NCBI GenBank assembly: GCA_963674595.2
Contig: CAXXFV010000027.1
Coordinates: 1-64,000 of the forward strand
DNA length: 64,000 nt
DNA from: a bacterium
Lineage (GTDB): Bacteria; Zhuqueibacterota; Zhuqueibacteria; Residuimicrobiales; Krinioviventaceae
Direction of reading: 5' to 3'
Part shown: positions 701 to 39,772 of the stretch, one piece after another
How the letters are laid out: every line of letters begins with the position of its first letter
Position numbering within the stretch: the stretch's first letter is position 1
Translations under genes and position numbers: made by a program
Notes under the pieces: generated by a model
What the model saw: only the letters and a program-made list of their open reading frames with translations
What the model was told of the DNA's origin: nothing
The model's database searches: none

Positions 701-1192
701 TTGCTTACTGATAATCAGATACTTGTTGTAGACGACGAAGAAATCATGCGAAAATCGTTGGAGGCGTGGTTAACAGATGAAGGATTTTTAGTAAGAACAG
801 CAGAAAATGGTATGGATGCGTTAAGGTTGATAAGAGAATTGAAACCGGATGTTATTGTGCTGGATATAAAAATGCCCGGTATGGACGGTGTTACATTGTT
901 AAAAAAAATAAAGGAAGTTGATAGTGAATTGCCGGTTATTATGATTACAGCCTATGGCACAATTGAAAATGCCGTTGAATCGATGAAAGAGGGTGCGTTT
1001 GATTTTTTAACAAAACCCTTTCCACCGGAAAAATTATCGCACATGTTAAAACTTGTTCTTGAGCACCAGCATTTAAAAAGAGAAAATATTCGTTTAACAA
1101 AAGAACGAAACCATATTTTACAAATTATGTTGAGTATTATTGTTTCGATGATAATTTTGGGCTTGCTCTATTATTTTGTTCTCGCTAAATGA
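701..1192 (+). CDS. Response regulator receiver (NtrC-like REC) with C-terminal hydrophobic helix
   Basis: ILVVDDEE, VIVLDIKMPGMDG, MITAYG, LTKPF; ends ILQIMLSIIVSMIILGLLYYFVLAK. Confidence 0.85.
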   Translation: MLTDNQILVVDDEEIMRKSLEAWLTDEGFLVRTAENGMDALRLIRELKPDVIVLDIKMPGMDGVTLLKKIKEVDSELPVIMITAYGTIENAVESMKEGAFDFLTKPFPPEKLSHMLKLVLEHQHLKRENIRLTKERNHILQIMLSIIVSMIILGLLYYFVLAK

Positions 1193-1200
1193 GATTGATT

Positions 1201-3228
1201 ATGACCCCAGTTGTAGAAACCATTGAAACCAAATGTAAACGATGTTATTCCTGTATACGCCACTGTCCAGCTAAGGCGATAAAAGTTGAGGGAGGCCAGG
1301 CTAAAGTTATTCCCGAACGATGTATCGCATGCGGCCATTGTATAAGGGTTTGCCCTCAAAATGCAAAAACGATACGCGACGGAATTGAGCCTACCAGAGA
1401 AATATTAAAATCCCATGGAAAAAAAATAGCCGCACTGGCGCCTTCTTTTCCGGCTGCTTTTGCTGATGTGCCCTATGGAAAAGTGGTTTCCGGGATTAAA
1501 AAATTGGGTTTTGATGAGGTTTATGAAGTTGCCTTTGCTGCGGATTTTGTCGGGCGTGAATATGAAAAATTTTTGCAGTTAAACTCCATGCCGGTTTCAA
1601 TTTCTTCGTCATGCCCGGCCATTGTCAATTTAATTGAAAAGCATTATCCAAATTTGTTAATGTTTTTAGTGCCTATTGTTTCACCTATGATCGCTATGGG
1701 GCGGTATTTAAAACAAACATTTAGTGATGCCACTGTTGTCTTTATCGGACCATGTGTTGCCAAAAAGAAAGAAATGGAAGATCCAAAAACCAGTGGGGTT
1801 ATTGATCAGGTCCTGACATTTGAAGAAATTGAAAAAATGTTTAAAGAGGATAATATCATTCTATCAGAGTTGGATGAATCAGAGTTTAGCAATCCTCCGG
1901 TGAGCCTGGGTCGAATTTTCCCGTTGTCCGGTGGTTTATTAAAAACAGCAGAAAAACAAAACGATCTTTTAGAAGACGATATCATTGTAACTGAAGGGCG
2001 TGACCGTGTTATCGAAATTTTAGAAAAAGTGGATGAAGGGAGAATAGAATCTCAATTTTTGGATTTACTTTTCTGCCACGGCTGTATTGACGGCCCTAAA
2101 ATGATAAATGATTTATCTGTTTTTATCCGCAAGGATAAAATTGTTTCCTATTATAAAAATAAAACAAATGATAAAAACAAAATCGATTGTCCTGTCTCTT
2201 TATTAAGAAAGTTTACCTTTGAACCTTTAAATTCTGAATTGCCGGATAAGGAAGAAATAAAAAAGATACTTGCTATTACAAATAAATTTTCGCCGGAAGA
2301 TGAATTAAATTGCGGTTCCTGCGGATATGCTACATGCCGTGAAAAAGCGATTGCTGTTTACCAGGGTTTGGCTGAGGCAGAAATGTGTTTACCGTTTATG
2401 ATTGAAAAACTGGAACAAACCCAACAGGATTTACAAAAGTCAAACAAAGAACTTGTACAGTCTCTTGAGGCATTAAGAAAAACCCAGCATCATCTTGTAC
2501 AATCTGAAAAATTAGCTTCCATAGGGCAATTGGCCGCCGGGGTTGCCCATGAATTGAATAATCCTCTTGGCGGGATATTAATTTACACAAGCCTGTTGCT
2601 TGAAAAGGCAAATCAGAATTCGTTGGAAGCACAGGACTTGAATAAAATTCTTAATGAAACGGAACGTTGTCGTAAAATTGTTCAGGATTTGTTAATCTTT
2701 TCAAAACAAACACGTTTGGAAATGTCACGTGTGGATTTGAATGCAATCATTGAAAATACATTGGCCCTTGTTTCACAACAATCTTTATTTCAGAATATTA
2801 AAATTCATAAAAAATTAGTATCTTGTTCTCCTAAAGTAAAAGTGGATGTCGGTCAAATCCAGCAGGTCCTGTTAAACATAATTATAAATGCTGCTCAGGC
2901 GCTTGCCGGTAAAGGTAACCTGACCATAGAAATAAAGTGTTTAAAAAATTCTAAATTTGTAAATTGTAATATAACAGATGACGGTCCGGGTATACCGGAT
3001 TCAATCAAAGAGAAAATATTTGATCCATTTTTTACTACAAAATCTCATGGAAAGGGTACCGGCCTTGGATTAGCGATAGCTTATGGAATTATACAAAAGC
3101 ATGACGGAGAAATATCTGTAAACAGCTCGAAAAACAAAGGCACAACTTTTAGTATAAAACTACCCATTGCAGAACATGTGGAGACAGAAATTGATAATAG
3201 AAAAAGTGAAAATATTAATTATAGATGA
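1201..3228 (+). CDS. Sensory (group C-like) [FeFe]-hydrogenase domain fused to histidine kinase, copy 1
   Basis: 2x[4Fe-4S] motifs CKRCYSCIRHCP and CIACGHCIRVCP; H-cluster-like motifs SSSCP, GPCVAKKKE, LFCHGCIDGP; FeS domain CGSCGYATC...C; H-box AHELNNPL; GKGTGLGL. Start placed at ATG 1201 by comparison with copy 2. Confidence 0.88.
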   Translation: MTPVVETIETKCKRCYSCIRHCPAKAIKVEGGQAKVIPERCIACGHCIRVCPQNAKTIRDGIEPTREILKSHGKKIAALAPSFPAAFADVPYGKVVSGIKKLGFDEVYEVAFAADFVGREYEKFLQLNSMPVSISSSCPAIVNLIEKHYPNLLMFLVPIVSPMIAMGRYLKQTFSDATVVFIGPCVAKKKEMEDPKTSGVIDQVLTFEEIEKMFKEDNIILSELDESEFSNPPVSLGRIFPLSGGLLKTAEKQNDLLEDDIIVTEGRDRVIEILEKVDEGRIESQFLDLLFCHGCIDGPKMINDLSVFIRKDKIVSYYKNKTNDKNKIDCPVSLLRKFTFEPLNSELPDKEEIKKILAITNKFSPEDELNCGSCGYATCREKAIAVYQGLAEAEMCLPFMIEKLEQTQQDLQKSNKELVQSLEALRKTQHHLVQSEKLASIGQLAAGVAHELNNPLGGILIYTSLLLEKANQNSLEAQDLNKILNETERCRKIVQDLLIFSKQTRLEMSRVDLNAIIENTLALVSQQSLFQNIKIHKKLVSCSPKVKVDVGQIQQVLLNIIINAAQALAGKGNLTIEIKCLKNSKFVNCNITDDGPGIPDSIKEKIFDPFFTTKSHGKGTGLGLAIAYGIIQKHDGEISVNSSKNKGTTFSIKLPIAEHVETEIDNRKSENINYR

Positions 3229-4540
3229 TAACGATTCCTTTCGAAATGCTTGTGCCGAATATTTAAAATATGCAGATTTTGATGTAACAAGTACTGATAA
3301 TGCCGAAACCGGATTGAAACTGTGTAATAAAAATGTATTTAAAATAGTATTTGTTGATTATAAAATGCCGGGGCTGGATGGAATTGAATTTTTATTAAAA
3401 CTTAAAGAAAAAACACCCGATGTTGATGTTGTGATTATAACAGGTTACGCCACAATTGAAATGGCCGTTGAAGCTATAAAGCATGGCGCTTATGATTATA
3501 TTCCTAAACCTTTTCATCCGGACAAATTAAAAGCTGTTATAGACAAAATTTTAGAAAAAAACAAATTATTAAACAAAAAACAATCTAAAGCACTCAGTCT
3601 GGATTTAAATGGAACTCCGTTTCAAATAATCGGCAACAGCCCCCGAATGCAGGAAATTTTTACACTTGTACAAAAAGTTGCTCCATCAGACAGCACCATT
3701 CTTATTCTTGGTGAAAGTGGGACGGGTAAAGAACTGATTGCCAAAGCGATTCATGCCAATAGTCATCGCCGTAAAAAAATGTTTTATACAATGGATTGTG
3801 GTTCTTTGGTAGAGTCACTTTTTGAAAGTGAATTGTTTGGCCATGTTAAAGGTTCATTTACAGGTGCCATTGCCACCAAACATGGATCAATGGAATTGGC
3901 GCATGGCGGTACTTTTTTCTTTGACGAAATCGGAAATATATCCAACAATGTTCAGGCAAAAATTTTAAGGGCCATACAGGAAAAAGAAATTCGGCGGGTG
4001 GGAAGCACGACCACAATACCCGTTGATGTTCGGGTTATTTCAGCAACTAATTTAGACTTGAGAAATGCTGTTGAAAAAGGCACATTTCGGGAAGATCTTT
4101 ATTACAGAATAAGTGTTGTGCCGATTTATCTACCACCTTTGAGAGAACGGAAAGAAGATATACCATTATTAATAGACTATTTTATAAAAAACCAAAATGT
4201 AAATCAGAAAACTCAAATTGATGAAATGGCTCCCGATGCCCAGGAACTGTTTATGCAGTATAATTGGCCTGGAAATATACGTGAGCTTGAAAATGCCATT
4301 GAACGGGCCATTTTAATAGAAGAATCTCCACAAATAACATTACAAAGCTTGCCAAAACAAATCAGAGAATTTCACGATTCGAAAAAACGATCCTTTTTAT
4401 CTCTATCTGCTGTAGAAAAAGAGCATATTATAAACATTTTAACGCAAACAAAATGGAATATCAGCAAAGCAGCAAAGATTTTGGAAATTGATAGAAAATC
4501 TTTATATGCTAAAATCAAAAAATATCAGATTAGTCGGTAA
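3191..4540 (+). CDS. Sigma54-dependent NtrC-family response regulator (REC-AAA+-HTH)
   Basis: REC (IIDDN, VDYKMPG, KPF); Walker A GESGTGKE; ESELFGHVKGSFTGA; FFDEIG; WPGNIRELEN; Fis-type HTH NISKAAKILEIDRKSLY. Likely TTG start 3191 after GGAG. Confidence 0.93.
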   Translation: MIIEKVKILIIDDNDSFRNACAEYLKYADFDVTSTDNAETGLKLCNKNVFKIVFVDYKMPGLDGIEFLLKLKEKTPDVDVVIITGYATIEMAVEAIKHGAYDYIPKPFHPDKLKAVIDKILEKNKLLNKKQSKALSLDLNGTPFQIIGNSPRMQEIFTLVQKVAPSDSTILILGESGTGKELIAKAIHANSHRRKKMFYTMDCGSLVESLFESELFGHVKGSFTGAIATKHGSMELAHGGTFFFDEIGNISNNVQAKILRAIQEKEIRRVGSTTTIPVDVRVISATNLDLRNAVEKGTFREDLYYRISVVPIYLPPLRERKEDIPLLIDYFIKNQNVNQKTQIDEMAPDAQELFMQYNWPGNIRELENAIERAILIEESPQITLQSLPKQIREFHDSKKRSFLSLSAVEKEHIINILTQTKWNISKAAKILEIDRKSLYAKIKKYQISR

Positions 4541-4556
4541 AAATGTTCCTGTTATA

Positions 4557-4590
4557 CCACACTTTTAAAAAAGTGTGGAGAAACTCCACA
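4557..4590. promoter_or_regulatory. Overlapping palindromes, candidate enhancer (UAS) for the sigma54 activator
   Basis: CCACACTTTT-AA-AAAAGTGTGG (4557-4578) and TGTGGAG-AAA-CTCCACA (4574-4590), about 110-145 bp upstream of the candidate sigma54 promoter. Confidence 0.55.
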
Positions 4591-4700
4591 GTATGTTCTA
4601 TCATTTTTGAGATATAAGAAGAAAAAGTATATTAAGCCTATATTTTACAGCTCAAAAATATGAAATTACCTTCATTTTTTTTAAAATAAATGTAAAATTA

Positions 4701-4716
4701 TGGCGTGATTTTTGAT
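4701..4716 (+). promoter_or_regulatory. Candidate sigma54 (-24/-12) promoter
   Basis: TGGCGTGATTTTTGAT versus consensus TGGCACG-N4-TTGCW, correct spacing, GA variant at -12; lies just after the sigma54 activator gene and ~40 bp before ATG 4759. Confidence 0.6.
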
Positions 4717-4758
4717 ATAACCAAGCCAAAAATGTTGTATAAAATCTGTAAGGCAATA

Positions 4759-5133
4759 ATGAATTGCTTACTTATATCAAATCCTCAGTGTAATGAAACA
4801 AAACAGTTGTTGGAATACTTGCAATCACAACATGTCTTGGTTGAAACTATAACCGAGGCGATTGTTGGGATTGAAAAAGCTCAGGAACAACATTTTGACG
4901 TTATTGTTATGGATGCCAAGCCAAAAGGAATAAAAATTGACAAAGCGATTCGTTTGCTAAAGGGATGTATTCCGAATGCACGAATCATTGTTCATACGAA
5001 TGAAAATTCAAAAAGGCTGGAAGCAAACGTAAGAAAGGAACAAATCTACTACTATCATATTAACTCGTTCGGAATGCAAGACTTGACTACTGCTGTAGCT
5101 ACCGCCTTGGGAATAAAAATAATAACCCATTAA
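4759..5133 (+). CDS. Atypical (pseudo) receiver domain protein
   Basis: CheY-like pattern with HFDVIVMD, but no acidic pair after beta1 (LLISN) and no KP motif (YHINSF). Confidence 0.65.
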   Translation: MNCLLISNPQCNETKQLLEYLQSQHVLVETITEAIVGIEKAQEQHFDVIVMDAKPKGIKIDKAIRLLKGCIPNARIIVHTNENSKRLEANVRKEQIYYYHINSFGMQDLTTAVATALGIKIITH

Positions 5134-5150
5134 AACAAACGGAGGATGAA

Positions 5151-5597
5151 ATGGCCAAGACAGCAAGAATTTTAATTGTAGACGACGATCCTGATTTTGT
5201 AGAGATTAACAAGACCATTTTAGAAAGCCATGGTTACACCGTTGAAACGGCTGACAGACCGGCTAACGCATGGGAAAAGGTTAAAAATTGGATGCCGGAC
5301 CTTATTTGTCTTGATGTGATGATGCCCTCCGGTACAGAAGGTTTTCATTTTGCTTATAAGGTAAGGAGTGATACAGAAACCCGTGATATTCCAATTTTAA
5401 TGATTACATCCATTCATGACCATAGTGATTTTCAGTTTTCACCTGATCAGGATGGAGATTTTTTACCGGTTGAATATTTTTTAGAAAAACCAATAAAATC
5501 TGATGTACTTATCTCTCATGTGGAATTGCTGCTTGAAAGCGGACGTGCAAAGAAAGAAACGAAACCTGATAAAGGTATTGGCTTAAAAAGAGATTAA
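5151..5597 (+). CDS. Single-domain response regulator
   Basis: ILIVDDDPDF, LDVMMP, MITS, LEKP; RBS GGAGG. Confidence 0.9.
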   Translation: MAKTARILIVDDDPDFVEINKTILESHGYTVETADRPANAWEKVKNWMPDLICLDVMMPSGTEGFHFAYKVRSDTETRDIPILMITSIHDHSDFQFSPDQDGDFLPVEYFLEKPIKSDVLISHVELLLESGRAKKETKPDKGIGLKRD

Positions 5598-5634
5598 CCA
5601 GGCGCATGAAATCCACTAAAAAAGGTGGTTAATT

Positions 5635-6021
5635 ATGGAAGCAAAACGAATATTATTAGCGGATGATGATCCGGATTTCCTCGAAATAAATAGAACGATT
5701 TTAGAAGCAAATGGATATTTAGTTGAAGAGGCTTCTACTTCTGCAGAAGCTCTCGAAAAACTTGAAACACATGAATTTGATCTGATTATTCTGGATCTCA
5801 TGATGGAAGAACGCGATTCGGGCTTTACAATCGCCTATGCTGTGCGTGAAAACGAACGGTTGCGTCACCTTCCGATTTTAATGTTAACTTCGGCAGAAGA
5901 AAAAACAGGATTTTCATTCAAGTTTTCTAATGATAAGGAATGGATGAAAGTTGATGATTTTGCTGCAAAACCCTTAAAACCAGCAGAACTTGTTATGCGA
6001 ATTGAAAAACTCTTAAAATGA
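5635..6021 (+). CDS. Single-domain response regulator
   Basis: ILLADDDPDF, LDLMME, MLTS, AKP. Confidence 0.9.
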   Translation: MEAKRILLADDDPDFLEINRTILEANGYLVEEASTSAEALEKLETHEFDLIILDLMMEERDSGFTIAYAVRENERLRHLPILMLTSAEEKTGFSFKFSNDKEWMKVDDFAAKPLKPAELVMRIEKLLK

Positions 6022-6033
6022 GGTCATAACATT

Positions 6034-7509
6034 ATGACTGATTCAGAGATTAGAATACTCGTTGTGGACGATGAAGAAATTATTCGTATCGGATGTAAAC
6101 GTATTTTGGAAGATACGCCCTATACTGTTGATATGGCAGAAAATGGTCGTGTTGGACTGGAGCTGTTGAAAAAAAACAGTTATGACCTTGTTTTGATAGA
6201 CCTGATGATGCCGCAAATGGGCGGACTTGAATTGCTGGAATATATTCCCGAAATCGATCCGAACCTTATTTCTATCATTATAACCGGTTTTGCAACGATA
6301 GAAACAGCCGTTGATGCTGTTAAAAAAGGCGCCTATGACTATTTGCCAAAGCCTTTTACTCCTGATGAGTTTCGTGCCCAGGTTCATCGTGGTTTGGAAA
6401 AAAGACGCCTGTTGCTTGAAGCGGAAAAGCTGAGAGAAGAAAGAGACCGGAATTTACTTGAATGCAGCAATGAAAAAACCAAAACGCTCACCATTATAAA
6501 CTGTATGAGTGAAGGAGTTATAGTCACCAACAGGTTAGGGCAAATAGTTTTGGTAAATCCCATTGCTTCTAAAATGCTGAGGACTGACAAATCCAGGCTT
6601 ATCGGCAAAACAGTTGACGGTCTGTTAGGAAGCAACGATCTGGAAAAATTGATTACCGAAACGCTTGAAAAAGTAACAAAAACAGTAACCACAACAAGAC
6701 TTGAAATAAAAACATCAGACGAACGGGTACTTCAACCCAATATAACACCCATTATTGATGAAAATGGTGAGGTTGTTGGTATTGTAACCGTTATAATTGA
6801 TATTACAGAAGAAAAGAAAATTGAAAAAACAAAATCGGAATTTGTCCGGCTGGTTTCTCATGAACTAAAAGCGCCAATAGGCGCCATTGAAGGATACCTT
6901 AATCTTATTATTGACGGACTGATTAAGGACAATCCTGAAAAACAAATGGATATTATAAAAAAATCACGAGACCGCGCCGAAGGACTATTATTATTAATCA
7001 ACGATTTACTGGACCTTTCAAGAGCGGACCGTAAAATATCCAAGGTTATGGAAGTCCTTCAGGTTAATGATATTTTGTGTGATAATTTTGAATTTTATAA
7101 TAATGAGGCTAAAAACAAAAATATTAAATTCATCTGTCAATCGGGAGAAAATATGCCGGCCATTTGGGGAAATGCGGAAGACCTTGCACGTGTTTTTGCC
7201 AATTTGTTTAGCAATGCCATTAAATATACGCCGGAGAACGGAACTGTAACCGTGTCATCTCTTGCAGAAAATTCACACGTTGTTGTCAAAGTTCAAGATT
7301 CCGGTATAGGCATTTCATCCGAAGACAAAAAAAATATATTTAATGAATTTTTCAGGACCAAAGAAGTTATTGCCAAAAAAATTACCGGTACAGGTTTGGG
7401 TTTGGCAATTGCTAAAAAAATTATAGATGACCATCATGGTCATATCGAAGTTGAAAGTACTCTTGGAAAAGGTTCAACATTTATTGTATCTTTTCCAATT
7501 TATCAATAA
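6034..7509 (+). CDS. Hybrid sensor kinase REC-PAS-HisKA-HATPase, copy 1
   Basis: N-terminal REC; PAS (MSEGVIVTNRLGQIVLVNP...DITE); H-box SHELKAP; NAIKY; GTGLGL. Confidence 0.92.
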   Translation: MTDSEIRILVVDDEEIIRIGCKRILEDTPYTVDMAENGRVGLELLKKNSYDLVLIDLMMPQMGGLELLEYIPEIDPNLISIIITGFATIETAVDAVKKGAYDYLPKPFTPDEFRAQVHRGLEKRRLLLEAEKLREERDRNLLECSNEKTKTLTIINCMSEGVIVTNRLGQIVLVNPIASKMLRTDKSRLIGKTVDGLLGSNDLEKLITETLEKVTKTVTTTRLEIKTSDERVLQPNITPIIDENGEVVGIVTVIIDITEEKKIEKTKSEFVRLVSHELKAPIGAIEGYLNLIIDGLIKDNPEKQMDIIKKSRDRAEGLLLLINDLLDLSRADRKISKVMEVLQVNDILCDNFEFYNNEAKNKNIKFICQSGENMPAIWGNAEDLARVFANLFSNAIKYTPENGTVTVSSLAENSHVVVKVQDSGIGISSEDKKNIFNEFFRTKEVIAKKITGTGLGLAIAKKIIDDHHGHIEVESTLGKGSTFIVSFPIYQ

Positions 7510-7549
7510 CCCAATTATACAAAACAAATTTTAATAATATGAGGATTTA

Positions 7550-8014
7550 ATGGACAGTAGAGAATTATATGAAAGACATCCTTCATCTGAAGCATCTGCA
7601 CTTATACCTTTTTTACAAGATTTGCAGGAATTATATGGGTACCTTCCAGAAGATGAAATGCGAAAAGTTGCCAACCATCTAAGATTGCCTTTCAGTCGCG
7701 TTTATGGTGTTGCTACATTTTATAACCAATTCCGGTTGCAACCATTGGGAAAATATGTTATCAAAGTATGCCGTGGTACAGCCTGTCACGTCAAAGGATC
7801 ATTTGATTTGCTAACAACTCTTGAAAATGAGCTCGGAATTAAAGCCGGCGAAACAACCAAAGATTTAAAATTTACTATAGAAACTGTTGCTTGCATAGGA
7901 GCTTGCAGTATGGCTCCCGTTATTGCTATAAATGATGAATTTTACGGTGGATTAACCGTAAAATCTTTGCAAAAGCTGCTGAAAACGATTGATAAAAACG
8001 GAGAAAAGGAGTAG
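7550..8014 (+). CDS. hydC: NuoE-like [2Fe-2S] subunit of multimeric [FeFe]-hydrogenase 1 (HydC)
   Basis: GVATFY, CRGTACH, ACIGACSMAP. Confidence 0.88.
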   Translation: MDSRELYERHPSSEASALIPFLQDLQELYGYLPEDEMRKVANHLRLPFSRVYGVATFYNQFRLQPLGKYVIKVCRGTACHVKGSFDLLTTLENELGIKAGETTKDLKFTIETVACIGACSMAPVIAINDEFYGGLTVKSLQKLLKTIDKNGEKE

Positions 8015-8017
8015 AGA

Positions 8018-10024
8018 GTGGCTAATTTAAACTCTTTGAAAAATATATTTACAAATTGTTGGCATAGTTCCGACAATCCATGTCAATTTTTTATAGAATG
8101 TTTGAATGATGGGCAGAAATGTCATCAATCTCAAACAACAAAATCACGATTAGATGAGTTCAAGAATACCATATTATTTGAAAATAATACCAAACCTGTC
8201 ATTTTAATAGGTATGGGAACGTGTGGACTTGCCAACGGGGCAAAAAAAGTTTATGATAGTTTTAAAAACGAACTGAATGCCAGAAATATAGATGCAACTT
8301 TGGTTTCAACCGGCTGTGTTGGATATTGTGCCAAAGAAGTTATTGTTGATATAAAACTTGCAGGAAAACCAAGAATAAGTTATTGTAAAGTTGTGCCTCA
8401 AGATGTTCCTGAGTTAATTGAATCAACACTCATTAAAGGACAGGTATACACAGATAAATTATTAGGAATTTATAATGCCAATGGTGAAAATTCCGACTGG
8501 AAAGGCCAACAAGATATTCAGGAAATTCCATTTTTCAAAAAACAGCACAAAGTTGTTTTAGCAAATTGTGGTATTATTGATCCTGAAAACATTGATCAAT
8601 ACATTGCTAAAGGTGGCTATGTTGCTCTTTCCAAGTCTGTTAATAAAATGAAACCGGCAGAAGTTATTCAAGAAGTTATTGATGCCGGGCTACGCGGAAG
8701 AGGCGGCGGCGGCTTTCCGACAGGTTTAAAATGGCAATTAGCACATAAAGTTGAAAGTGATATTAAATATCTGGTATGTAACGCTGACGAAGGTGATCCG
8801 GGAGCCTTTATGGACCGGGCCGTGCTTGAAGGTGATCCGCATCGATTGGTTGAAGGAATGACAATCGCTGCTTATGCCATTGGCGCCAGTGTTGGATATG
8901 TTTACTGCCGTGCTGAATATCCTCTGGCCATCAAAAGATTGGAAAAAACAATTAAAGATGCTAAAGAATATGGCCTTTTAGGTGAAAATATCCTGGGCAG
9001 TGGATTTAATTTTGAATTAAAAATCAAAAAAGGAGCCGGTGCTTTTGTTTGTGGGGAAGAAACAGCACTGTTGCATTCTATTGAAGGTAAACGTGGAATG
9101 CCGAGACCACGACCGCCTTATCCATCTGATTCCGGTTTATGGGGTAAACCGACCGTCATTAACAATGTTGAAACATTCTCAAATGTTTCCAATATTTTAG
9201 CAAACGGTGCCGAATGGTATTCAAGTATTGGAACAGAAAATTCTAAAGGAACCAAAATTTTTGCATTGTCCGGTAAAGTAACAAATGTTGGACTGGTTGA
9301 AGTTCCTATGGGTATTTCACTCAGAGAAGTCGTTTTTGATATTGGCGGCGGTATTCCTGATAACAAAGCATTTAAAGCTGTTCAGATAGGCGGCCCTTCA
9401 GGCGGTGCTTTACCTGAACAGGTTATCGATACAAAAATAGATTATGAATCCTTGAAAAAAGTTGGTGCAATGATGGGTTCAGGTGGTCTTGTTGTTATGG
9501 ATGAGACAACCTGTATGGTAGACCTTGCCAAATACTTTATGACATTTATCCAATCGGAATCATGCGGTAAATGTATTCCTTGTCGTGAAGGTACAAAACG
9601 TTTACTGGAAATTTTGGAACGATTAACTACCAGTCATCGAAGTGAAAATTCCGCAACGGAATCGTTGCTCCGATTTCAGGGAATGGTCTATATGGAACGC
9701 CTTGCCGAAGTTATTGCCAATACATCACTGTGTGGGTTGGGACAGACAGCGGCAAATCCTGTATTGAGTACGTTACGTTATTTCCGTGACGAATATGAAG
9801 CACATCTTTATGATCGTAAATGTCCGGCTGGTGAATGTCGTGAGCTGTTAACATTTCATATTGATACGGATAAATGTACTGGATGCCATCTTTGTGCTAA
9901 AAAATGTCCTGAAAATGCCATTATCGGTGAAGTTAAAAAAGCACACTATATTATTGATGATAAATGTGTCCGTTGTGATCAGTGTAGAGCCAATTGTAAA
10001 TTTGATGCGATTTATGTTGATTAA
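8018..10024 (+). CDS. hydB: NuoF-like FMN/NADH subunit of hydrogenase 1 (HydB), bifurcating-type signature
   Basis: GRGGGGFPTG, ADEGDPGAFMDR, GAGAFVCGEET, GGPSGG, SCGKCIPCREG, C-terminal 2x[4Fe-4S] (CTGCHLCAKKCP, CVRCDQCRANC). Confidence 0.9.
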   Translation: MANLNSLKNIFTNCWHSSDNPCQFFIECLNDGQKCHQSQTTKSRLDEFKNTILFENNTKPVILIGMGTCGLANGAKKVYDSFKNELNARNIDATLVSTGCVGYCAKEVIVDIKLAGKPRISYCKVVPQDVPELIESTLIKGQVYTDKLLGIYNANGENSDWKGQQDIQEIPFFKKQHKVVLANCGIIDPENIDQYIAKGGYVALSKSVNKMKPAEVIQEVIDAGLRGRGGGGFPTGLKWQLAHKVESDIKYLVCNADEGDPGAFMDRAVLEGDPHRLVEGMTIAAYAIGASVGYVYCRAEYPLAIKRLEKTIKDAKEYGLLGENILGSGFNFELKIKKGAGAFVCGEETALLHSIEGKRGMPRPRPPYPSDSGLWGKPTVINNVETFSNVSNILANGAEWYSSIGTENSKGTKIFALSGKVTNVGLVEVPMGISLREVVFDIGGGIPDNKAFKAVQIGGPSGGALPEQVIDTKIDYESLKKVGAMMGSGGLVVMDETTCMVDLAKYFMTFIQSESCGKCIPCREGTKRLLEILERLTTSHRSENSATESLLRFQGMVYMERLAEVIANTSLCGLGQTAANPVLSTLRYFRDEYEAHLYDRKCPAGECRELLTFHIDTDKCTGCHLCAKKCPENAIIGEVKKAHYIIDDKCVRCDQCRANCKFDAIYVD

Positions 10025-10041
10025 TATATTAGAGGAATAGA

Positions 10042-11751
10042 ATGAAAATAACGTTAAATGATAAAGAATGCTGGGCAAATCCAGGTGAAACAATATTAAA
10101 AGTTGCTGAACGTGAAGGCGTAAAAATACCAACTTTATGTTATTTAAAAGACTTTTCACCAACGGGTTCATGCCGAATTTGTGTTGTTGATGTAGAAGGT
10201 CAAAGAAGTCTTGTACCTGCTTGTGCTTTTCCTGTTTTTGAAGGAATGAAAGTTCAGACAAATTCTCAAAAAGTACGACGCTCAAGAAAAACAATAATTG
10301 AATTGCTGATTGCCAATCACCCTCAGGATTGTCTGGTATGTGTTCGTAGTGGTAACTGTGAACTGCAAAGTCTTGCACAGGAATATGATATTGCCAGTTT
10401 TCGATATTCTGGTGAAAGAAAACATAACAAACTTGATATTGCCAGTCCGGCAATTGAACGTGACCCAGAAAAATGTATTTTATGTGGACGATGTGTTCGA
10501 ATCTGTCATGAAGTTCAAAAGGTTGGTGCTATTGATTTTGCCAATCGTGGATTTAAAAGTGTTGTAACACCTGCTTTTGACCAGAGTCTCAATACCATGT
10601 CATGTGTTTATTGTGGTCAGTGTATTACAGCATGTCCGGTTGGCGCTTTAAGAGAAAAAAGCCATTTAAAAATGGTATGGGAAGCCATTAATAATAAAGA
10701 TAAATATGTTGTTGTACAGGTTGCACCTGCTGTTCGGGTTGCTCTTGGTGAAGAATTTGGTATGGAAGCGGGATCTGTTGTTACCGGTAAAATTGTTTCT
10801 GCTCTTCGCCGCATAGGGTTTGACCAGGTATTTGACACCAACTTTAGCGCAGATTTAACAATCATTGAAGAAGCAACCGAGCTTCTCGGCCGTTTAAACA
10901 ATGGCGGCACATTGCCGATGATGACTTCATGCAGCCCGGGTTGGATCAAATATATTGAACATTATTATCCGGATTTATTGGATAATTTATCAACCTGTAA
11001 ATCTCCGCACGAAATGCAGGGTGCTTTAATAAAATCCTATTATGCTGAAAAGATGAATATTGATCCTGAAAAAATATTCGTTGTATCGATAATGCCATGT
11101 ACTGCTAAAAAATTTGAAGCCCAACGGCCGGAACTTGGTGATAACTATCAGGATGTTGACGCTGTTTTAACAACACGTGAATTAGGGCGTATGATTAAAA
11201 CGGCCGGAATCGAATTCAACAAATTACCGGACGAGTATTTTGATGATCCTATGGGAGAATCAACCGGCGCTGCTGTTATCTTTGGAAGTGCAGGCGGTGT
11301 TATGGAAGCAGCCATTCGAACAGCTTATTTCACCTTGACCGGCAAAGAAATGGATAATATAGATTTTAAAAGTGTCCGCGGTCTGGACGGCGTTAAAGAT
11401 GCCTCTGTTGAAATAAATGGTATTAAACTTAATATTGCCGCAGTTAATGGATTGAGCAATATGAGCAAAATTCTTGATGATATTCGCAACGGTGAAACCC
11501 AATACCATTTTATTGAAGTCATGGCTTGTCCTGGCGGTTGTATTAATGGTGGTGGACAACCATTGCCTGCAAGTCAGGAAAAAACAGAAAAACGTATGCA
11601 CGCCATTTATAAAATAGACCGTTCATTGCCCAAACGTGCTTCACATCAGAATGAATCCGTTCAAAAATTGTATAAAGAATTTTTAGGCGAACCGAATGGT
11701 CATAAAGCGCATGAATTATTGCACACACACTATGTGAAGAGAGAAATATAA
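10042..11751 (+). CDS. hydA: Group A [FeFe]-hydrogenase catalytic subunit 1 (HydA)
   Basis: [2Fe-2S] motif, His-ligated HxxxCxxCxxxxxC, 2x[4Fe-4S]; H-cluster motifs TSCSPGW, MPCTAKKFE, EVMACPGGCINGGGQP; ends AHELLHT. Confidence 0.95.
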   Translation: MKITLNDKECWANPGETILKVAEREGVKIPTLCYLKDFSPTGSCRICVVDVEGQRSLVPACAFPVFEGMKVQTNSQKVRRSRKTIIELLIANHPQDCLVCVRSGNCELQSLAQEYDIASFRYSGERKHNKLDIASPAIERDPEKCILCGRCVRICHEVQKVGAIDFANRGFKSVVTPAFDQSLNTMSCVYCGQCITACPVGALREKSHLKMVWEAINNKDKYVVVQVAPAVRVALGEEFGMEAGSVVTGKIVSALRRIGFDQVFDTNFSADLTIIEEATELLGRLNNGGTLPMMTSCSPGWIKYIEHYYPDLLDNLSTCKSPHEMQGALIKSYYAEKMNIDPEKIFVVSIMPCTAKKFEAQRPELGDNYQDVDAVLTTRELGRMIKTAGIEFNKLPDEYFDDPMGESTGAAVIFGSAGGVMEAAIRTAYFTLTGKEMDNIDFKSVRGLDGVKDASVEINGIKLNIAAVNGLSNMSKILDDIRNGETQYHFIEVMACPGGCINGGGQPLPASQEKTEKRMHAIYKIDRSLPKRASHQNESVQKLYKEFLGEPNGHKAHELLHTHYVKREI

Positions 11752-11753
11752 TA

Positions 11754-13796
11754 ATGCCTGTTGTTTGGACAATTGAAGAAAAATGTAAGCGCTGTTATAG
11801 CTGCATACGTGAATGTCCTGCAAAGGCTATTAAAGTTGAAAAAGGCCAGGCAAAGGTAATTCAGGATCGTTGTATAGGATGCGGACATTGTGTCAGTGTT
11901 TGTTCTCAAAAGGCAAAAGCTGTGCTCAGTGGAATTGACGCAACATTATCCTTTTTAAATTCGGATTCGCCGACATTTGCTATGTTAGCTCCGGCTTTTC
12001 CGGCAGCCTTTCCGGATGTAGACCCTGGTTTAGTGGTTGGTGCTTTAAAAGCTTTAGGTTTTTCAAAAGTAGTTGAAGTAGCATTTGGTGCTGATTTGAT
12101 AAATCGAAAATATAAAGCCCTGGTATCCCGAAATGAAGAAAAGGATCCGCACAAAACCAATGAACCTGTCATTACCAGTTCCTGCCCGGCAATTTGTGAA
12201 TATATCCAAAAATATGTGCCGGAATTAATATCACATCTGGCACCTATTGTTTCTCCTATGGTAGCAATGGGACGTGTCGTTAAAATGTTTTATGGCGACC
12301 ATAATAAAGTTGTGTTTATTGGCCCATGCTCTGCTAAAAAAGTAGAAATGCTTGATGAAGAAGTTAAGGATTCGGTGGATGAAGTATTGACATTTACAGA
12401 GATTGAAAAAATCTTTGTAAAAAAGAATATACAGTTTGACCAAATTCAAAAAATGCCTTTTGATCCGCCGCACCCATATTTAGGACGATTGTATCCAATT
12501 TCAGGAGGATTATTGAGAAGTGCCGGCCTTCCTTTTGATATTATGAATAATGATATTATTTTAACGGAAGGCAAACAACGTATTCTCAACCTGCTTGAAT
12601 GTATTCATAACCATGAAATTGATGCAAAAATGGTTGACGTGCTTTTCTGTGAAGGGTGTATTAATGGTCCCTATATGAATCACTCTATTAATTATTTTTC
12701 ACGTAAACAAAAAATAGTTAAATATAGCGATTCCAAAAGACCACTTACTAACTATCCTGAATGGGAAAAGAATATTAAAAAATGTACTGACTTGCCGTTA
12801 ACACGAAAGTTTAAATTTCAGGCTATTTCTAAAATTGAACCGTCTGATTCGGAGATTCGGCGAATATTATTAAAGATAAATAAAAGAACCGAATCAGATG
12901 AATTGAATTGCGGCGCTTGTGGGTATGCCTCCTGTAGAGAATACGCAACAGCCGTTTTTCAAGGTTTGGCTGAAGAAGAAATGTGTCTGCCTTTTCTTGT
13001 AGACAAACAGGAAAAAATGCAAATTGAACTTCAGAGCTCCTTTAAAGAGTTGTCCGAAACCCAGGAACAACTCATTCATCATGAAAAATTGGCATCTATC
13101 GGACAATTGGCAGCCGGCGTTGCTCATGAAGTTAATAACCCACTCGGGTCGATTATGCTTTATGCGCATTTGGTGCTGCAAAAGCTGGGACAAGATGATC
13201 CAAATGCAAGCGACCTTTATTTTATAATGGAGGAAGCCAAAAGGTGCCAAAAAATTGTTGCAGGACTTTTAAACTTTGCGCGGCAAGGACATTTAAAGTT
13301 TAATAAACAAGATATTGGTAAAATAATTGAAAAAATTATCAACACAGTTGAAAAACAGAAACTGTTTGAAAATATTAAAATACAGAACCAGCTCGATGCT
13401 AAATTACCGCAAATAGATGTGGATAGAGACCAAATACATCAGGTTTTTCTTAATTTGATTATAAACGCTGCCGAAGCTATGCAGGATAATAATTTAAATA
13501 AAAAACTTGAAATTGAATCGGTTATCGATACTGAAACCAATCGGTTGTTTTTGCATTTTAGAGACAATGGTGTCGGAATCCCCGCAGAAAATATGGGTAA
13601 ACTTTTCACACCTTTTTTCACAACCAAACAAATTGGTGAAGGTACGGGTTTAGGTCTTCCCATTGCCTATGGTATCGTTAAAATGCATCGTGGCAATATT
13701 TCTGTAAAAAGTGAAATTGGCAAAGGTACAACCTTTACGGTTGAATTACCCATGGTATCAGAAACTTTTGCCAGCCAAAATTCAGTATTTAATTGA
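11754..13796 (+). CDS. Sensory (group C-like) [FeFe]-hydrogenase domain fused to histidine kinase, copy 2
   Basis: CKRCYSCIRECP, CIGCGHCVSVC; TSSCP, GPCSAKKVE, LFCEGCINGP; CGACGYASC; H-box AHEVNNPL; GEGTGLGL. Confidence 0.88.
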   Translation: MPVVWTIEEKCKRCYSCIRECPAKAIKVEKGQAKVIQDRCIGCGHCVSVCSQKAKAVLSGIDATLSFLNSDSPTFAMLAPAFPAAFPDVDPGLVVGALKALGFSKVVEVAFGADLINRKYKALVSRNEEKDPHKTNEPVITSSCPAICEYIQKYVPELISHLAPIVSPMVAMGRVVKMFYGDHNKVVFIGPCSAKKVEMLDEEVKDSVDEVLTFTEIEKIFVKKNIQFDQIQKMPFDPPHPYLGRLYPISGGLLRSAGLPFDIMNNDIILTEGKQRILNLLECIHNHEIDAKMVDVLFCEGCINGPYMNHSINYFSRKQKIVKYSDSKRPLTNYPEWEKNIKKCTDLPLTRKFKFQAISKIEPSDSEIRRILLKINKRTESDELNCGACGYASCREYATAVFQGLAEEEMCLPFLVDKQEKMQIELQSSFKELSETQEQLIHHEKLASIGQLAAGVAHEVNNPLGSIMLYAHLVLQKLGQDDPNASDLYFIMEEAKRCQKIVAGLLNFARQGHLKFNKQDIGKIIEKIINTVEKQKLFENIKIQNQLDAKLPQIDVDRDQIHQVFLNLIINAAEAMQDNNLNKKLEIESVIDTETNRLFLHFRDNGVGIPAENMGKLFTPFFTTKQIGEGTGLGLPIAYGIVKMHRGNISVKSEIGKGTTFTVELPMVSETFASQNSVFN

Positions 13797-13811
13797 ATAA
13801 CAGGTTAAAAA

Positions 13812-14207
13812 ATGAAAAAGAAAATACTGCTTGTCGATGATGATACAGATTTTGTAGCAATTAATCGTGATTTTTTGATTAGTAACGGATTTCAAGTCCT
13901 GGTAGCTTATAACGGACAAGAAGCTGAACAAGTATTGGCTGAAGAAATACCGGATTTAATGATATTAGATGTTATGATGAGTGAAGTAGGAGAGGGTTTT
14001 GAGGTGGCGCGAAACGTTCGGGCCGATGAGAGAACAGCACACATTCCTATTCTCATGCTTACCTCTGTCAATCAGGAACATGATTTTAATTTAACAATTG
14101 GGCCTGATGCCAACTGGAACCCGGTTGACCAGTTTGTTGAAAAACCCATTGAACATAAGCAATTACTCGAAAAAGTATATGAACTGCTCAAGATAGAAAA
14201 GGAATAA
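13812..14207 (+). CDS. Single-domain response regulator
   Basis: ILLVDDD, LDVMMS, MLTS, EKP. Confidence 0.9.
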   Translation: MKKKILLVDDDTDFVAINRDFLISNGFQVLVAYNGQEAEQVLAEEIPDLMILDVMMSEVGEGFEVARNVRADERTAHIPILMLTSVNQEHDFNLTIGPDANWNPVDQFVEKPIEHKQLLEKVYELLKIEKE

Positions 14208-14210
14208 GGA

Positions 14211-14609
14211 ATGAATAAGAAAATATTAATGGTTGATGACGATATTGATTTGATAGATATTTACAAGCCGGTTTTGGAAAATGCCGGTTATACCGTTAAA
14301 GCAGCCTATGACAGCAACGAAGGTTTTCAGGCTTTTCAGGACTTTAATCCGGATGTTGTATTGGTTGATTTGGCAATGGAGCATTTTGATTCCGGTTTTG
14401 TTCTTTGCCATAAAATTAAAAAACTTGAAAAATCCAAAAATATACCGGTTATCATTATGACAGCCGCCGGACACGAAACCGGAATTCGTTTTACAACACA
14501 AACAAATGAAGAAAGAAACTGGATTAAAGCTGACGATTATCTGGAAAAACCTATTTCTCCAAGAGATTTATTGCAATATTTGAATGAAAAAGTATTCAAG
14601 GCCAAATGA
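14211..14609 (+). CDS. Single-domain response regulator
   Basis: ILMVDDD, VDLAME, IMTA, LEKP. Confidence 0.9.
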   Translation: MNKKILMVDDDIDLIDIYKPVLENAGYTVKAAYDSNEGFQAFQDFNPDVVLVDLAMEHFDSGFVLCHKIKKLEKSKNIPVIIMTAAGHETGIRFTTQTNEERNWIKADDYLEKPISPRDLLQYLNEKVFKAK

Positions 14610-16114
14610 TAGTTGAAAATCGTCAAATACTTGTCATTGATGATGAACGAGGAATGCGTGAGGGTATAAAACGCATTCTGGAGCTTCAGGGTCACCATGT
14701 AGATACTGCTGATAACGGAACGCTTGGAATAGAGCTTGGTTCCTTTAAAGAATATGATCTCTATTTCATTGATTTAAAAATGCCGGATATTGAAGGAACT
14801 CAGGTTTTACGTGAGATAAAATTATGCTATCCGGAAGCGATCTGCATAATTGTAACAGCTTTTGCATCGATTGAAACCGCAGTAACAACGACCCGTTTAG
14901 GTGCTTATCAGTATATTTCCAAGCCCTTTACTCCGGAAGAGCTTAATATTCTGGTTAACCGCGCTTTGGAACGCAGATGGTACATTCTTGAAGCTCGCCG
15001 ACTAAAAGAAGAACAACAAAGTCGTCTTTTAGAGGTTGCAAATGAAAAGTCCAGAATGCGTACAATTATCAATGCACTGGATGACGGTATTCTTGTAGTA
15101 AATCAAAATGGTGAAATTGTTCTATTTAATCCTGGATTTTTGAAATTACTCGATATTAAAAATGAACTTAAAATAGGTGAAACCATTTATCCATTTTTGC
15201 CGGCAGAACTTTCAAATCAAATCCAGGAAATACTGTTTAACAGAGGTGTTTTTAAGGCTATTAAACAGGAACTTGTAGTAAAACCGCCTGCTGAGATGGT
15301 AATTATGGCCAATACGACACCTATTTTAAATAATAATAATGAACTTGTTGGGCTCGTTTCAGTGTTGCGCGACATTACCGAACTTAAACAAGTTGATGTT
15401 CTTAAATCACAATTTGTTAATATGGCTGCCCATGAATTGAAATCACCTTTATCGGCAGTTCAGGGCTACCTGGAAATGATTGCAGACCATACACTTGGTG
15501 ATGCTCCTGAAATATATGACGGCTATGTTAACCGTTCTCTTGAAAGGACTAAATCATTGGTTGCTTTAATCAATGATTTGCTCAATATCTCTCGTCTTGA
15601 TGCAAATAAAGTTCGAAGAGATATAGTATCTCTTAATTTATCTGATATAATTTTTGATGAGTTAATTAATTTAAAAGATAAATTTTTCAATAAAAATTTG
15701 TATATTGAACTCTCTATTGATAATATGCTTTTTGTTGAGGCAGATGAACAAGAAGTCCGTAGAGTTTTCAAAAACCTGATTTCCAATGCTATAAAATACA
15801 ATCGTGACGACGGTCAGATTTTTATTCGCACCAAAATACTTGCTCATTATTTTTTAATTGAAATAAGAGACACCGGCATTGGTCTGTCACCTGAAGAAAA
15901 AGATCGACTCTTTGAAGAGTTTTTTCGCGCAAAAAACAAGTACACAAGGCGTATTCCTGGTACGGGTTTAGGGCTCAGTATTGTTAAAAAAATATTGGAT
16001 ACTTATGCAGGAAAAATTGAGATAGAAAGTACGTTTGAACAAGGTTCAGTTTTTTTTGTATCATGGCCGAAACCGGTTAAGTCAGCAACACCTGTTAATA
16101 CCCTTAATTCATAA
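14606..16114 (+). CDS. Hybrid sensor kinase REC-PAS-HisKA-HATPase, copy 2
   Basis: REC; PAS (LDDGILVVNQNGEIVLFNP...RDITE); H-box AHELKSP; NAIKY; GTGLGL. Confidence 0.92.
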   Translation: MIVENRQILVIDDERGMREGIKRILELQGHHVDTADNGTLGIELGSFKEYDLYFIDLKMPDIEGTQVLREIKLCYPEAICIIVTAFASIETAVTTTRLGAYQYISKPFTPEELNILVNRALERRWYILEARRLKEEQQSRLLEVANEKSRMRTIINALDDGILVVNQNGEIVLFNPGFLKLLDIKNELKIGETIYPFLPAELSNQIQEILFNRGVFKAIKQELVVKPPAEMVIMANTTPILNNNNELVGLVSVLRDITELKQVDVLKSQFVNMAAHELKSPLSAVQGYLEMIADHTLGDAPEIYDGYVNRSLERTKSLVALINDLLNISRLDANKVRRDIVSLNLSDIIFDELINLKDKFFNKNLYIELSIDNMLFVEADEQEVRRVFKNLISNAIKYNRDDGQIFIRTKILAHYFLIEIRDTGIGLSPEEKDRLFEEFFRAKNKYTRRIPGTGLGLSIVKKILDTYAGKIEIESTFEQGSVFFVSWPKPVKSATPVNTLNS

Positions 16115-16143
16115 ACATTTTTATGCCATAAAAAGGATGATAT

Positions 16144-16485
16144 ATGCAAATTCAAGACATCGTTACGAAACTTGGTCTCCGAATTTTGAGTGGGGAAAAC
16201 AATCTGACCAAAGATGTTACTTGCGGATATATTTCCGACATTTTAAGCGATGTGATGGCCAAATCTGCAAAGGGAGCAATATGGGTAACCAACCAAACCC
16301 ATGAAAATATAATTGCCATTGTTTTTTTTAAAAATTTGGCTGGTGTAATTTTACCTGATAATTTGCAGCCTGAAGAATCTGCTTTACAAAAAGCTAAGGA
16401 AAAATCGATACCGATCTTTGTATCCGAATATTCAGCATTCGATATTGCCGGTAAACTTTATGAACTGGGTATCCGGGGGAAATAG
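16144..16485 (+). CDS. DRTGG-domain-like protein (hydrogenase-associated)
   Basis: GYISDILSDVM, WVTNQTHENIIA, AFDIAGKLYELG pattern typical of small DRTGG proteins found in Hnd/Hyd operons. Confidence 0.75.
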   Translation: MQIQDIVTKLGLRILSGENNLTKDVTCGYISDILSDVMAKSAKGAIWVTNQTHENIIAIVFFKNLAGVILPDNLQPEESALQKAKEKSIPIFVSEYSAFDIAGKLYELGIRGK

Positions 16486-16488
16486 TGA

Positions 16489-17235
16489 ATGCTTTCATTG
16501 TACAAAGCAGACCTTCATATACATTCTGTTTTATCAGCCTGTGCTGAACTGAGTATGGGCCCCAAGGACATTGTTGCAAAAGCCCTGGAAAAAAAACTTG
16601 ATATTATTGCGATAACAGATCATAATTCTGCTGAAAATGCAGGAGCTGTGATTGATTGTGCCAAGGATACTAAACTTTTCGTTATTCCCGGTATAGAGAT
16701 TTATACAAGAGAAGAAGTCCATGTTATTGCTCTGTTTGAATCAGTTGAATCAGCACAACAAATGGAACAATTCATCTATTCACATTTACCGGAAGGTGAT
16801 TATGATGAATCATATTTTGGACAACAAATAGTATGCGATAAAAATCAAAATGTAATTGATTATAACACGAAAATGCTGCCGTTTCCTGTTAATTGCTCGC
16901 TTCATGATGTTGCACATCAGGTGGAACAATTAAACGGAATTTTTTATCCGGCCCACATAAACCGCAAGGCAAACAGTATTCTCCGTGTGCTGGGATTTAT
17001 CCCGGATAATCTGCCGATAAAGGCCCTGGAAATTACAAAACCCTATAAAGAAGCAGTTGAAGAATTACGTTTTTTAAAAAATACAAAATATAGCATCCTT
17101 GTTTCATCCGATGCTCATGATATAAACGATGTGGGCAAAAATTCTACATTGATGAAACTGGAAGAGCCTTCATTTTCTGAAATTAAATTGGCTATTGAAC
17201 AAAAACAAGACCGGACTATTATAAACGAGGAATGA
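16489..17235 (+). CDS. PHP-domain phosphoesterase
   Basis: DLHIHSVLSAC, AITDHN, GIEI, AHINR, SSDAH metal-binding motifs. Confidence 0.88.
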   Translation: MLSLYKADLHIHSVLSACAELSMGPKDIVAKALEKKLDIIAITDHNSAENAGAVIDCAKDTKLFVIPGIEIYTREEVHVIALFESVESAQQMEQFIYSHLPEGDYDESYFGQQIVCDKNQNVIDYNTKMLPFPVNCSLHDVAHQVEQLNGIFYPAHINRKANSILRVLGFIPDNLPIKALEITKPYKEAVEELRFLKNTKYSILVSSDAHDINDVGKNSTLMKLEEPSFSEIKLAIEQKQDRTIINEE

Positions 17236-17780
17236 GAGAACTATCCTTACATATTCTCGATATTGCTACTAATTCTGTTGAAGCAGAAGCGACAAGAGTC
17301 ATTTTATTTATTAAAGAATCTGAAAAAGAGAATCTGTTTCAGATCATAGTAAGAGACAATGGTCGCGGTATGAGCCCGGAATTGCTAAAAAAAGTAATAG
17401 ACCCATTTACTACTTCCCGAACAACACGTAAAGTGGGAATGGGCCTGCCATTAATGAAACTTGCTGCCGAACAGGCAGGAGGTTCTTTGAAGATTAATTC
17501 TGAATTGGGTAAAGGCACCCAGTTATGTGTGACTTTACAAAAAAATAACCTAAACCGCGCGCCGCTTGGTGATATTGGCGATACAGTTGTAAACCTGATA
17601 ATAGGTGCACTTGACGTTCATTTTTGTTATTTGCACCAAACCGATATAGGATGTTTTCGTTTTGATTCTTTTTGGATTTTTGCCGAAATGGCAAATCAAA
17701 ATCTAAATATATATGAAATGGTTGAACCTGCAAAAAAATACATAAATACAGGTTTAACAAATATTAAGTCAGTTGGCTAA
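17232..17780 (+). CDS. Histidine-kinase-like ATPase (HATPase_c only), hydrogenase-associated
   Basis: MRELSLHILDIATNS, DNGRGM, DPFTTSRTTRKVGMGL, RAPLGD; no sensor or HisKA domain. Confidence 0.82.
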   Translation: MRELSLHILDIATNSVEAEATRVILFIKESEKENLFQIIVRDNGRGMSPELLKKVIDPFTTSRTTRKVGMGLPLMKLAAEQAGGSLKINSELGKGTQLCVTLQKNNLNRAPLGDIGDTVVNLIIGALDVHFCYLHQTDIGCFRFDSFWIFAEMANQNLNIYEMVEPAKKYINTGLTNIKSVG

Positions 17781-17840
17781 ATATTAACATAATTAATTAT
17801 AAACCAATAAAACTAAATAACCATTTAGGAGGAACCAAAC

Positions 17841-18203: not shown

Positions 18204-18252
18204 TCAAAAGAAAATTTAGTAATAACCAATAGAAGATATACATTGGAGGTCT

Positions 18253-20359: not shown

Positions 20360-20400
20360 GGCATTTCCCGTATAAATTGAGTTTTCATGGAGGAATTAAA

Positions 20401-22150: not shown

Positions 22151-22189
22151 AAGCCTCAAAGAAATTTTCTTTGGGGCTTTTTTCTTTTT
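22151..22189 (+). terminator. Rho-independent terminator closing the hydrogenase cluster
   Basis: AAGCCTCAAAGAA / TTCTTTGGGGCTT stem followed by a T tract. Confidence 0.8.
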
Positions 22190-37173: not shown

Positions 37174-37174
37174 T

Positions 37175-39762: not shown

Positions 39763-39772
39763 GATACCGCTT

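Follow-up and report, generated by a model that had tools for sequence, protein, structure and literature searches.

Two PAS-less hydrogenase-kinase fusions with a shortened H-cluster motif in a two-hydrogenase gene run of a Zhuqueibacterota bacterium

The window analyzed here, the whole 64,000-nucleotide (nt) stretch at positions 1 to 64,000 of contig CAXXFV010000027.1 (GenBank assembly GCA_963674595.2, phylum Zhuqueibacterota), carries 22 genes that run in one direction from 18 to 22134, and all gaps between them bar one are 60 nt or less. Two genes of this run encode an [FeFe]-hydrogenase domain (H-domain) fused to a histidine kinase, and these putative sensors, copy 1 and copy 2, are the subject of this report. 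Both have a shortened third H-cluster motif (P3).

1189..3228, + strand: sensor kinase copy 1; 679 amino acids (aa) if begun at the ATG at 1189, 675 aa if begun at 1201
2062..2085, + strand: short P3 motif of copy 1, DLLFCHGC (CxxC), gapped against solved HydA
11754..13796, + strand: sensor kinase copy 2; 680 aa, start 2 nt past the hydA1 stop codon
12636..12659, + strand: short P3 motif of copy 2, DVLFCEGC (CxxC), from the motif scan

The possible start of copy 1 at 1189, which overlaps the stop codon of the upstream gene, is a minor correction to 1201. The two proteins are 50% identical over 674 alignment columns and share the Pfam architecture Fer4-Fe_hyd_lg_C-FeS-HisKA-HATPase_c, with an N-terminal 2x[4Fe-4S] ferredoxin, a C-terminal FeS motif Cx2Cx4Cx16C, and the H, N, and G boxes of a histidine kinase. 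No PAS model was found in either sensor (Pfam, E<=0.001); the identical scan detected PAS in the neighboring kinases at 6034 and 14606. Both sensors are soluble, judging by their low hydropathy maxima (1.7 and 1.6). Copy 1 carries APSF (1438-1449), SSSCP (1603-1617), GPCVAKKKE (1747-1773), and RIFPLSGG, and copy 2 carries APAF (11988-11999), TSSCP (12174-12188), GPCSAKKVE (12321-12347), and RLYPISGG, while the catalytic HydAs of the window read TSCSP, MPCTAKK[FY]E, and E[VI]MACPGGC. An earlier, sequence-only reading of this DNA had quoted the P1, P2, and P3 motifs of sensors and HydAs, and all were confirmed, including CxxC in place of CxxxC in both copies, a one-residue gap relative to solved HydA. 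At the positions of CpI C299, M353, and M497 (these numbers and F417 follow the literature), both copies have Ser, Gly, and Leu.

Neither sensor belongs to group A, given TIGR02512 scores of 120.6 and 106.3 bits against a cut-off of 405.95. Both combine the features of group C, namely N-terminal 2x[4Fe-4S], C-terminal Cx2Cx4Cx16C, substituted C299, M353, and M497 positions, and a fused kinase. In the IQ-TREE phylogeny, a clade of 70 FeS-tailed sequences (support 99) holds the window sensors together with HydS-type sequences, apart from group A; the HydDB entries themselves are absent from this tree and were compared by motifs, which match. Within group C, subclass M2f has a PAS domain after the C-terminal FeS cluster, where both window sensors have a helical linker instead, and Leu at the Glu252 position, Gly at M353, and the fused kinase set them apart from group D and HydDB C1. 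The P3 spacing, CxxC, is noncanonical in both copies.

Comparison with known systems draws on the accessible parts of PMC13104023, PMC8163306, PMC10407848, PMC11216029, PMC3534657, PMC13451876, PMC10055695 (primer table), PMC11406978, and PMC5037454. As in the HydS of Thermotoga maritima (TmHydS; group C, M2f), Cys is missing at C299, Gly stands at M353, and Met is missing at M497; also shared are an aromatic-Pro pair at F417/G418 and 2x[4Fe-4S] with the C-terminal Cx2Cx4Cx16C. That the P1 and P2 changes typify sensory HydS, as the sequence-only reading held, agrees with the TmHydS primers TT(A131)CP and (G177)PCIAKK, translated by eye. TmHydS differs in having CxxxC, the P3 Glu, a PAS domain, and no fused kinase, where the window sensors have CxxC, Asp, Leu-Phe, and a direct helix to HisKA. 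The HydS of Thermoanaerobacter mathranii (TamHydS; group D, M2e), a near relative of which is HydDB C1, is likewise PAS-less and shares Leu at M497, the C-terminal FeS motif, and an Ala-Pro-Ser pocket. Unlike the window sensors, it has CxxxC, Ser at M353, and no fused output, and its proton-path Glu252 (Val in group A) is Leu in the window sensors.

The kinase-fused group C3 class and the two-sensor gene arrangement are already published, and the window is another member. HydDB (PMC5037454) lists proteins of Ignavibacterium album (WP_014559402.1) and Caldithrix abyssi (WP_006928132.1) as C3, sensory, 'fusion with histidine kinase', a function label that is itself a prediction. Like the window sensors, these C3 proteins (659 and 670 aa) have APSF, GPCxxKKxE, and a short P3 (DILFCEGC; EVLCCTGC), the I. 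album motifs being APSF/ISSACP/GPCVAKKHE/DILFCEGC. Their HydDB rows list PAS, unlike the window sensors, and are silent on the short loop. BfuT of sub-type V bfuABCT (PMC11406978) is also group C3 with a histidine kinase domain replacing PAS, and in three Bacteroidota of that study a bfuT gene precedes bfuC and another follows bfuA, as in the window. Features of the window beyond bfuABCT are another hydrogenase set and a pair of receiver/hybrid-kinase cassettes. The motif analysis in PMC11406978 covers BfuA rather than BfuT.

To place the short loop, we used a close-homolog set (n=221, two copies of the window proteins taken out) and an H-domain set (n=351, drawn from proteins, loci, and the window, one partial HydA removed before tree building); counts in these sets are not natural frequencies, because sampling was by similarity to the query. 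CxxC occurs in 220 of the 221 close homologs, so the loop is real, and a sequencing error, chance, or a peculiarity of this genome is ruled out. In the motif D-x-L-F-C, Asp, Leu, and Phe are each kept in 221/221. Short P3 spacing extends to 228 of the 351 H-domains, including kinase, PAS-kinase, and sigma54-activator fusions; members of the PAS-length HydS clade have CxxxC (80/82). FastTree joins the short-loop sequences in a clade of 232 (support 86). With IQ-TREE, on 77 of the 351 sequences, P3 length changed 4 times against 21.2 when shuffled, and the deep branches stayed open despite the FastTree clade, so that the trait is strongly clustered but may or may not have a single origin. A sub-lineage (L005, L009, L011, L012, and L014-L020) reads [EDQ]-x-L-C-C-x-G-C, where one more Cys adjoins the short loop; in most of these loci the sensor lies near position 10000, and several have Asp at C299 (SSDCP).

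The predicted H-cluster loop of both sensors is unusual compared with characterized HydS. The literature searched yielded no discussion of the CxxC motif, but most subscription papers and logo figures were beyond reach and the gap may therefore lie in print. HydDB (PMC5037454) does hold five distinct C3 entries with LFCEGC despite the short loop, and catalogued short-loop proteins come from the cultured Moorella thermoacetica, I. album, and C. abyssi.

Our favored reading, which we hold to be reasonably probable, is that both proteins are H-cluster H2-sensor kinases regulating two hydrogenase operons. It leans chiefly on the diiron pocket. The Ala-Pro pocket, Ser-Pro, Lys, and Glu are all present in both copies. 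The conserved Lys, whose retention had been noted from the letters alone, also occurs in 221/221 close homologs, as does the Ala-Pro pocket (APSF 215, APTF 3, APAF 2, APSY 1). We take the Lys and the pocket to correspond to CpI K358 and A498 and to have the roles known from CpI. SPM and all four cubane Cys are present in 119/119 sequences of the first homolog set, and the 11 N-terminal and C-terminal FeS Cys are invariant or nearly so. The AlphaFold model of copy 2 (pLDDT 94, pTM 0.77) matches CbA5H (Z 42.0, root-mean-square deviation 2.5, 348 residues aligned) and CpI (Z 39.1, deviation 2.8, 355 aligned); among the matches of the sequence and fold searches there was no solved group C or D structure. 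In ferredoxin chemistry a CxxC can ligate two irons of the same cubane, and the P3 deletion therefore need not displace the bridging Cys. TmHydS lacks Cys299, Met353, and Met497, yet its diiron site is taken up.

The sequence-only reading had also allowed that the shortened loop might hold only a [4Fe-4S] cluster. Here CxxC would point the bridging Cys out of the pocket, the diiron site would stay empty, and the kinase would read the redox state or integrity of the [4Fe-4S] chain, or O2, in a Nar1-like manner. Nar1/CIAO3 gives a precedent for this alternative alone: it shares the hydrogenase fold and keeps the cubane Cys but, unlike the window sensors, serves eukaryotic Fe-S assembly and has neither H-cluster nor kinase. 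CxxC occurs in neither characterized HydS, and a bulky Phe before the first P3 Cys and the Glu-to-Asp change accompany the deletion in 221/221 close homologs. Moreover, the short-loop set has repeatedly yielded pocket-less, four-Cys members, with 9 changes of Lys state on its tree. Lys is absent from 16 of 225 short-loop sequences, of which 15 also lack Ala-Pro, compared with 9 of 209 that keep Lys, and the four Cys are retained in 15 of the 16. These Lys-less sequences look like cubane-only offshoots, and the window sensors are not among them; the Lys and Ala-Pro pocket in both copies and in 221/221 homologs, unlike the degenerate offshoots, speaks against the cubane-only alternative, as does a HydA homolog beside 17 of 19 fusion loci among those listed. 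We regard it as unlikely, though it keeps some standing. Lys-less, Ala-Pro-less, four-Cys short-loop proteins include L008:1957-4020, L017:3366-5258 (minus strand), P0155, P0179, and P0190, among others.

Several observations weigh against an H-cluster in the window sensors. The TmHydS primers read IEA(S267)ACYGSCL and the TamHydS gene EGLACIGGC (both translated by eye), that is, CxxxC in each, and Greening et al. (2024) take CxxxC as a requirement for ligating the center. The P3 Glu is replaced by Asp in 221/221 close homologs, and in TamHydS the change E289D lowered H2 oxidation to <=3%. Co-loss of Lys and pocket was not significant on independent pairs (6 pairs, median p 0.125). At L016 and L017 the sensor retains Lys while the adjoining HydA has lost it, so the sensor Lys may be retained for structure. 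No HydE/HydG-type motif was found within the 64-kb window. The HydA homologs at L016:8001-9818 and L017:8258-9979 have degenerate H-cluster motifs (ACP, TPCMAMKFE).

A short coiled coil without PAS had been proposed to join the FeS domain to HisKA, and the Pfam scan, the linker, and the model bear this out. The last FeS Cys lies 54 residues before the H-box His in copy 1 and 47 in copy 2, and in 161 of 163 PAS-less fusions this linker measures 33, 40, 47, 54, 61, or 68 residues, lengths identical modulo 7. A heptad-locked length is the pattern expected of a signaling coiled coil with phase dependence in sensor kinases. In the copy 2 model a single helix, residues 412-478, is predicted to connect the last FeS Cys with the DHp of the kinase; because the FeS domain would pass by this one continuous helix into DHp, PAS may be dispensable. 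A homodimer prediction (residues 66-515 with four cubanes) scored 0.38 against a mark of 0.42 and was not used.

In TamHydS, H2 does not reduce the C-terminal cluster, in keeping with a mechanical role for the C-terminal FeS domain. The same result also lends itself to a different input, in which the diiron site is loaded but the kinase follows the ferredoxin/NADH redox pool by way of the 2x[4Fe-4S] relay at the N terminus, or responds to H2 and redox jointly rather than to H2 alone. The ferredoxin motifs are conserved, and the gene before hydC in L009 and L010 resembles, by eye and by motif, the NADH sensor and redox repressor Rex. The relay is common to all HydS, however, and no ferredoxin partner gene lies beside either sensor; we judge a redox-pool input rather improbable.

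As to why two H2-sensor kinases should be kept, copy 1 and copy 2 fall into separate supported clades (99 and 97 in IQ-TREE; 100 and 100 in FastTree), and on this phylogeny they are old lineages and not the product of a recent duplication. The copy 1 lineage (n=119) has Phe at the CpI F417 position in 119/119 sequences, Pro at C299 in 114/119, and APSF in 118/119, while the copy 2 lineage (n=67) has Tyr at F417 in 67/67, Ser at C299 in 59/67, APSF in 63/67, and APAF in 1/67. Window copy 1 is atypical in its Ser at C299, where its lineage usually has Pro, so both window copies have Ser. That the copies are redundant, or differ by drift after a recent duplication, would suit this shared Ser, which erases one lineage difference, and the sporadic APAF; with 50% identity, separate clades, fixed Phe against fixed Tyr, different linkers, and different downstream regulators, it seems very improbable.

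The sequence-only reading had taken APSF versus APAF as the tuning difference, and this claim did not hold: APAF occurs sporadically, in 2/221 homologs, and APSF is the norm of the copy 2 lineage, where APAF, at 1/67, is a private change. The remaining differences between the window copies are F/Y at the F417 position, the 54- versus 47-residue linker, and the downstream partners. Thresholds for H2 could differ, but this would rest on F/Y and linker length and not on APSF/APAF. In TmHydS, Y223F at the F417-equivalent position shifted activity just slightly, by about +25% and -10%, evidence against large tuning by this residue. Separate wiring therefore has better support than separate thresholds.

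In the gene run, sensor 1 is followed by an NtrC-type activator, three receivers, a REC-PAS kinase, hydCBA, and sensor 2; then come two receivers, a second REC-PAS kinase, the DRTGG/PHP/HATPase genes, and hydDCBA.

701-1192: receiver domain that ends in a hydrophobic helix at its C terminus (hydropathy 2.53); overlaps the sensor 1 start
3167..4540, + strand: NtrC-type sigma54 activator (receiver, AAA+, HTH_8); true start probably downstream of 3167
4574..4590, no strand: perfect 7-bp inverted repeat, candidate activator-binding site or hairpin (post hoc)
4701..4716, + strand: candidate sigma54 -24/-12 promoter, 9/12 consensus, ahead of the 4759-22134 run (weak, post hoc)
4705..7509, + strand: signaling cassette 1; degenerate receiver (likely start 4759), receivers 5151-5597 and 5635-6021, hybrid kinase 6034-7509
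7550..11751, + strand: hydC-hydB-hydA (bfuCBA) set 1; HydB with C-terminal 2x[4Fe-4S] domain
13812..16114, + strand: signaling cassette 2; a pair of single-domain receivers plus one REC-PAS-HisKA-HATPase hybrid kinase
16144..17780, + strand: DRTGG protein, PHP-domain protein, and HATPase_c protein
17841..22134, + strand: hydD-hydC-hydB-hydA set 2; HydB without N-terminal Cys and C-terminal 2x[4Fe-4S]
22151..22179, + strand: 13-bp stem and T run, likely terminator of the gene run

The receiver at 701-1192 is preceded by a kinase gene cut at the window edge. From adjacency, the sigma54 activator is the likely phospho-acceptor of copy 1. The sole larger gap of the run, 218 nt, lies directly past this activator and contains the inverted repeat, which has a counterpart in 3 of 300 shuffles (post hoc). 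The promoter-like site at 4701..4716, in the same gap, has 3 mismatches and was matched by 24 of 2000 shuffles; a sigma54 pattern search at <=2 mismatches gave chance level (29 versus 30.9). In 3 of 11 related loci, sigma54-like sites of at least 9/12 fall no more than 70 nt from the start of hydC; the background rate is 0.027 per 120 nt. The hybrid kinase at 6034-7509 is REC-PAS-HisKA-HATPase, and those of the two cassettes are 42% identical.

The C-terminal 2x[4Fe-4S] of HydB1 suggests that hydrogenase set 1 is of the bifurcating type, and set 2 is probably non-bifurcating and NADH-linked, given the clusters absent from HydB2; loss of these HydB clusters has been tied to loss of bifurcation (PMC11406978). 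NCBIfam names both window HydAs NADH-dependent group A6. Both read TSCSP (10924-10938 and 21292-21306), with Ser occupying the place of C300, a cubane ligand in CpI, where Ser is common according to PMC11406978. A genome scan listed 80 related loci, with genes labeled by best BLAST hit to window proteins. Among them, at least 19 loci have a full-length kinase fusion; a group A HydA homolog is present in 17 of these 19 and a receiver-kinase gene follows the fusion in 19/19.

Further along the window, hypA and hypB ([NiFe] maturation) lie at 25753-26761, and no [NiFe] hydrogenase was recognized nearby. From its translations, we take 33560-40945 to resemble an alternative complex III (act) operon. 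Several short open reading frames at 54965-60699 resemble, by eye, fragments of a PEP-utilizing enzyme and a DEAD/DEAH helicase split by frameshifts, possibly through sequencing errors.

Under the favored reading, the two fusions are sensory [FeFe]-hydrogenases of group C3, located in the cytoplasm, whose observed architecture joins them to NtrC-family histidine kinases. The H-domain would hold a complete H-cluster despite CxxC, the second Cys serving as the bridge to the diiron site, which H2 would bind or reduce with slow turnover as in TmHydS. A conformational change would then pass through the C-terminal FeS domain into the continuous, register-locked helix that becomes the DHp helix. By gene order, the neighboring sigma54 activator is the probable target of phosphorylation by copy 1 and would drive the downstream hydrogenase gene run, and copy 2 may feed the single-domain receivers and the REC-PAS hybrid kinase. 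Both copies would be kept mainly through wiring to different outputs and through their places before two different hydrogenases.

A wider picture can be drawn, one we put forward as speculative and on balance doubtful. The output-fused branch of group C, with its kinase, sigma54-activator, and chemotaxis fusions, may have an uncharacterized H-cluster site (CxxC bridge, Asp for Glu, cubane-adjacent Phe) in which catalysis was traded for a switch driving a register-locked helix. Several offshoots, their diiron pocket gone, would have become pure [4Fe-4S] sensors, and the window would hold two lineage-specialized versions that, at different H2 levels, gate one bifurcating hydrogenase and one non-bifurcating.

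To the published class, this analysis adds the extent of CxxC, the heptad-locked linker, the true lineage differences, and the pocket-less offshoots as natural controls. Signal transmission by sensory [FeFe]-hydrogenases is described as untested in PMC13104023. TmHydS and TamHydS have no fused output, while an H-domain and kinase in a single chain give a direct autophosphorylation readout. These sensors could also reveal whether an H-cluster forms on CxxC, where a published survey filter assumes otherwise (Greening et al. 2024), and the opportunity extends beyond this window, since the I. album, C. abyssi, and Moorella thermoacetica proteins are also short-loop.

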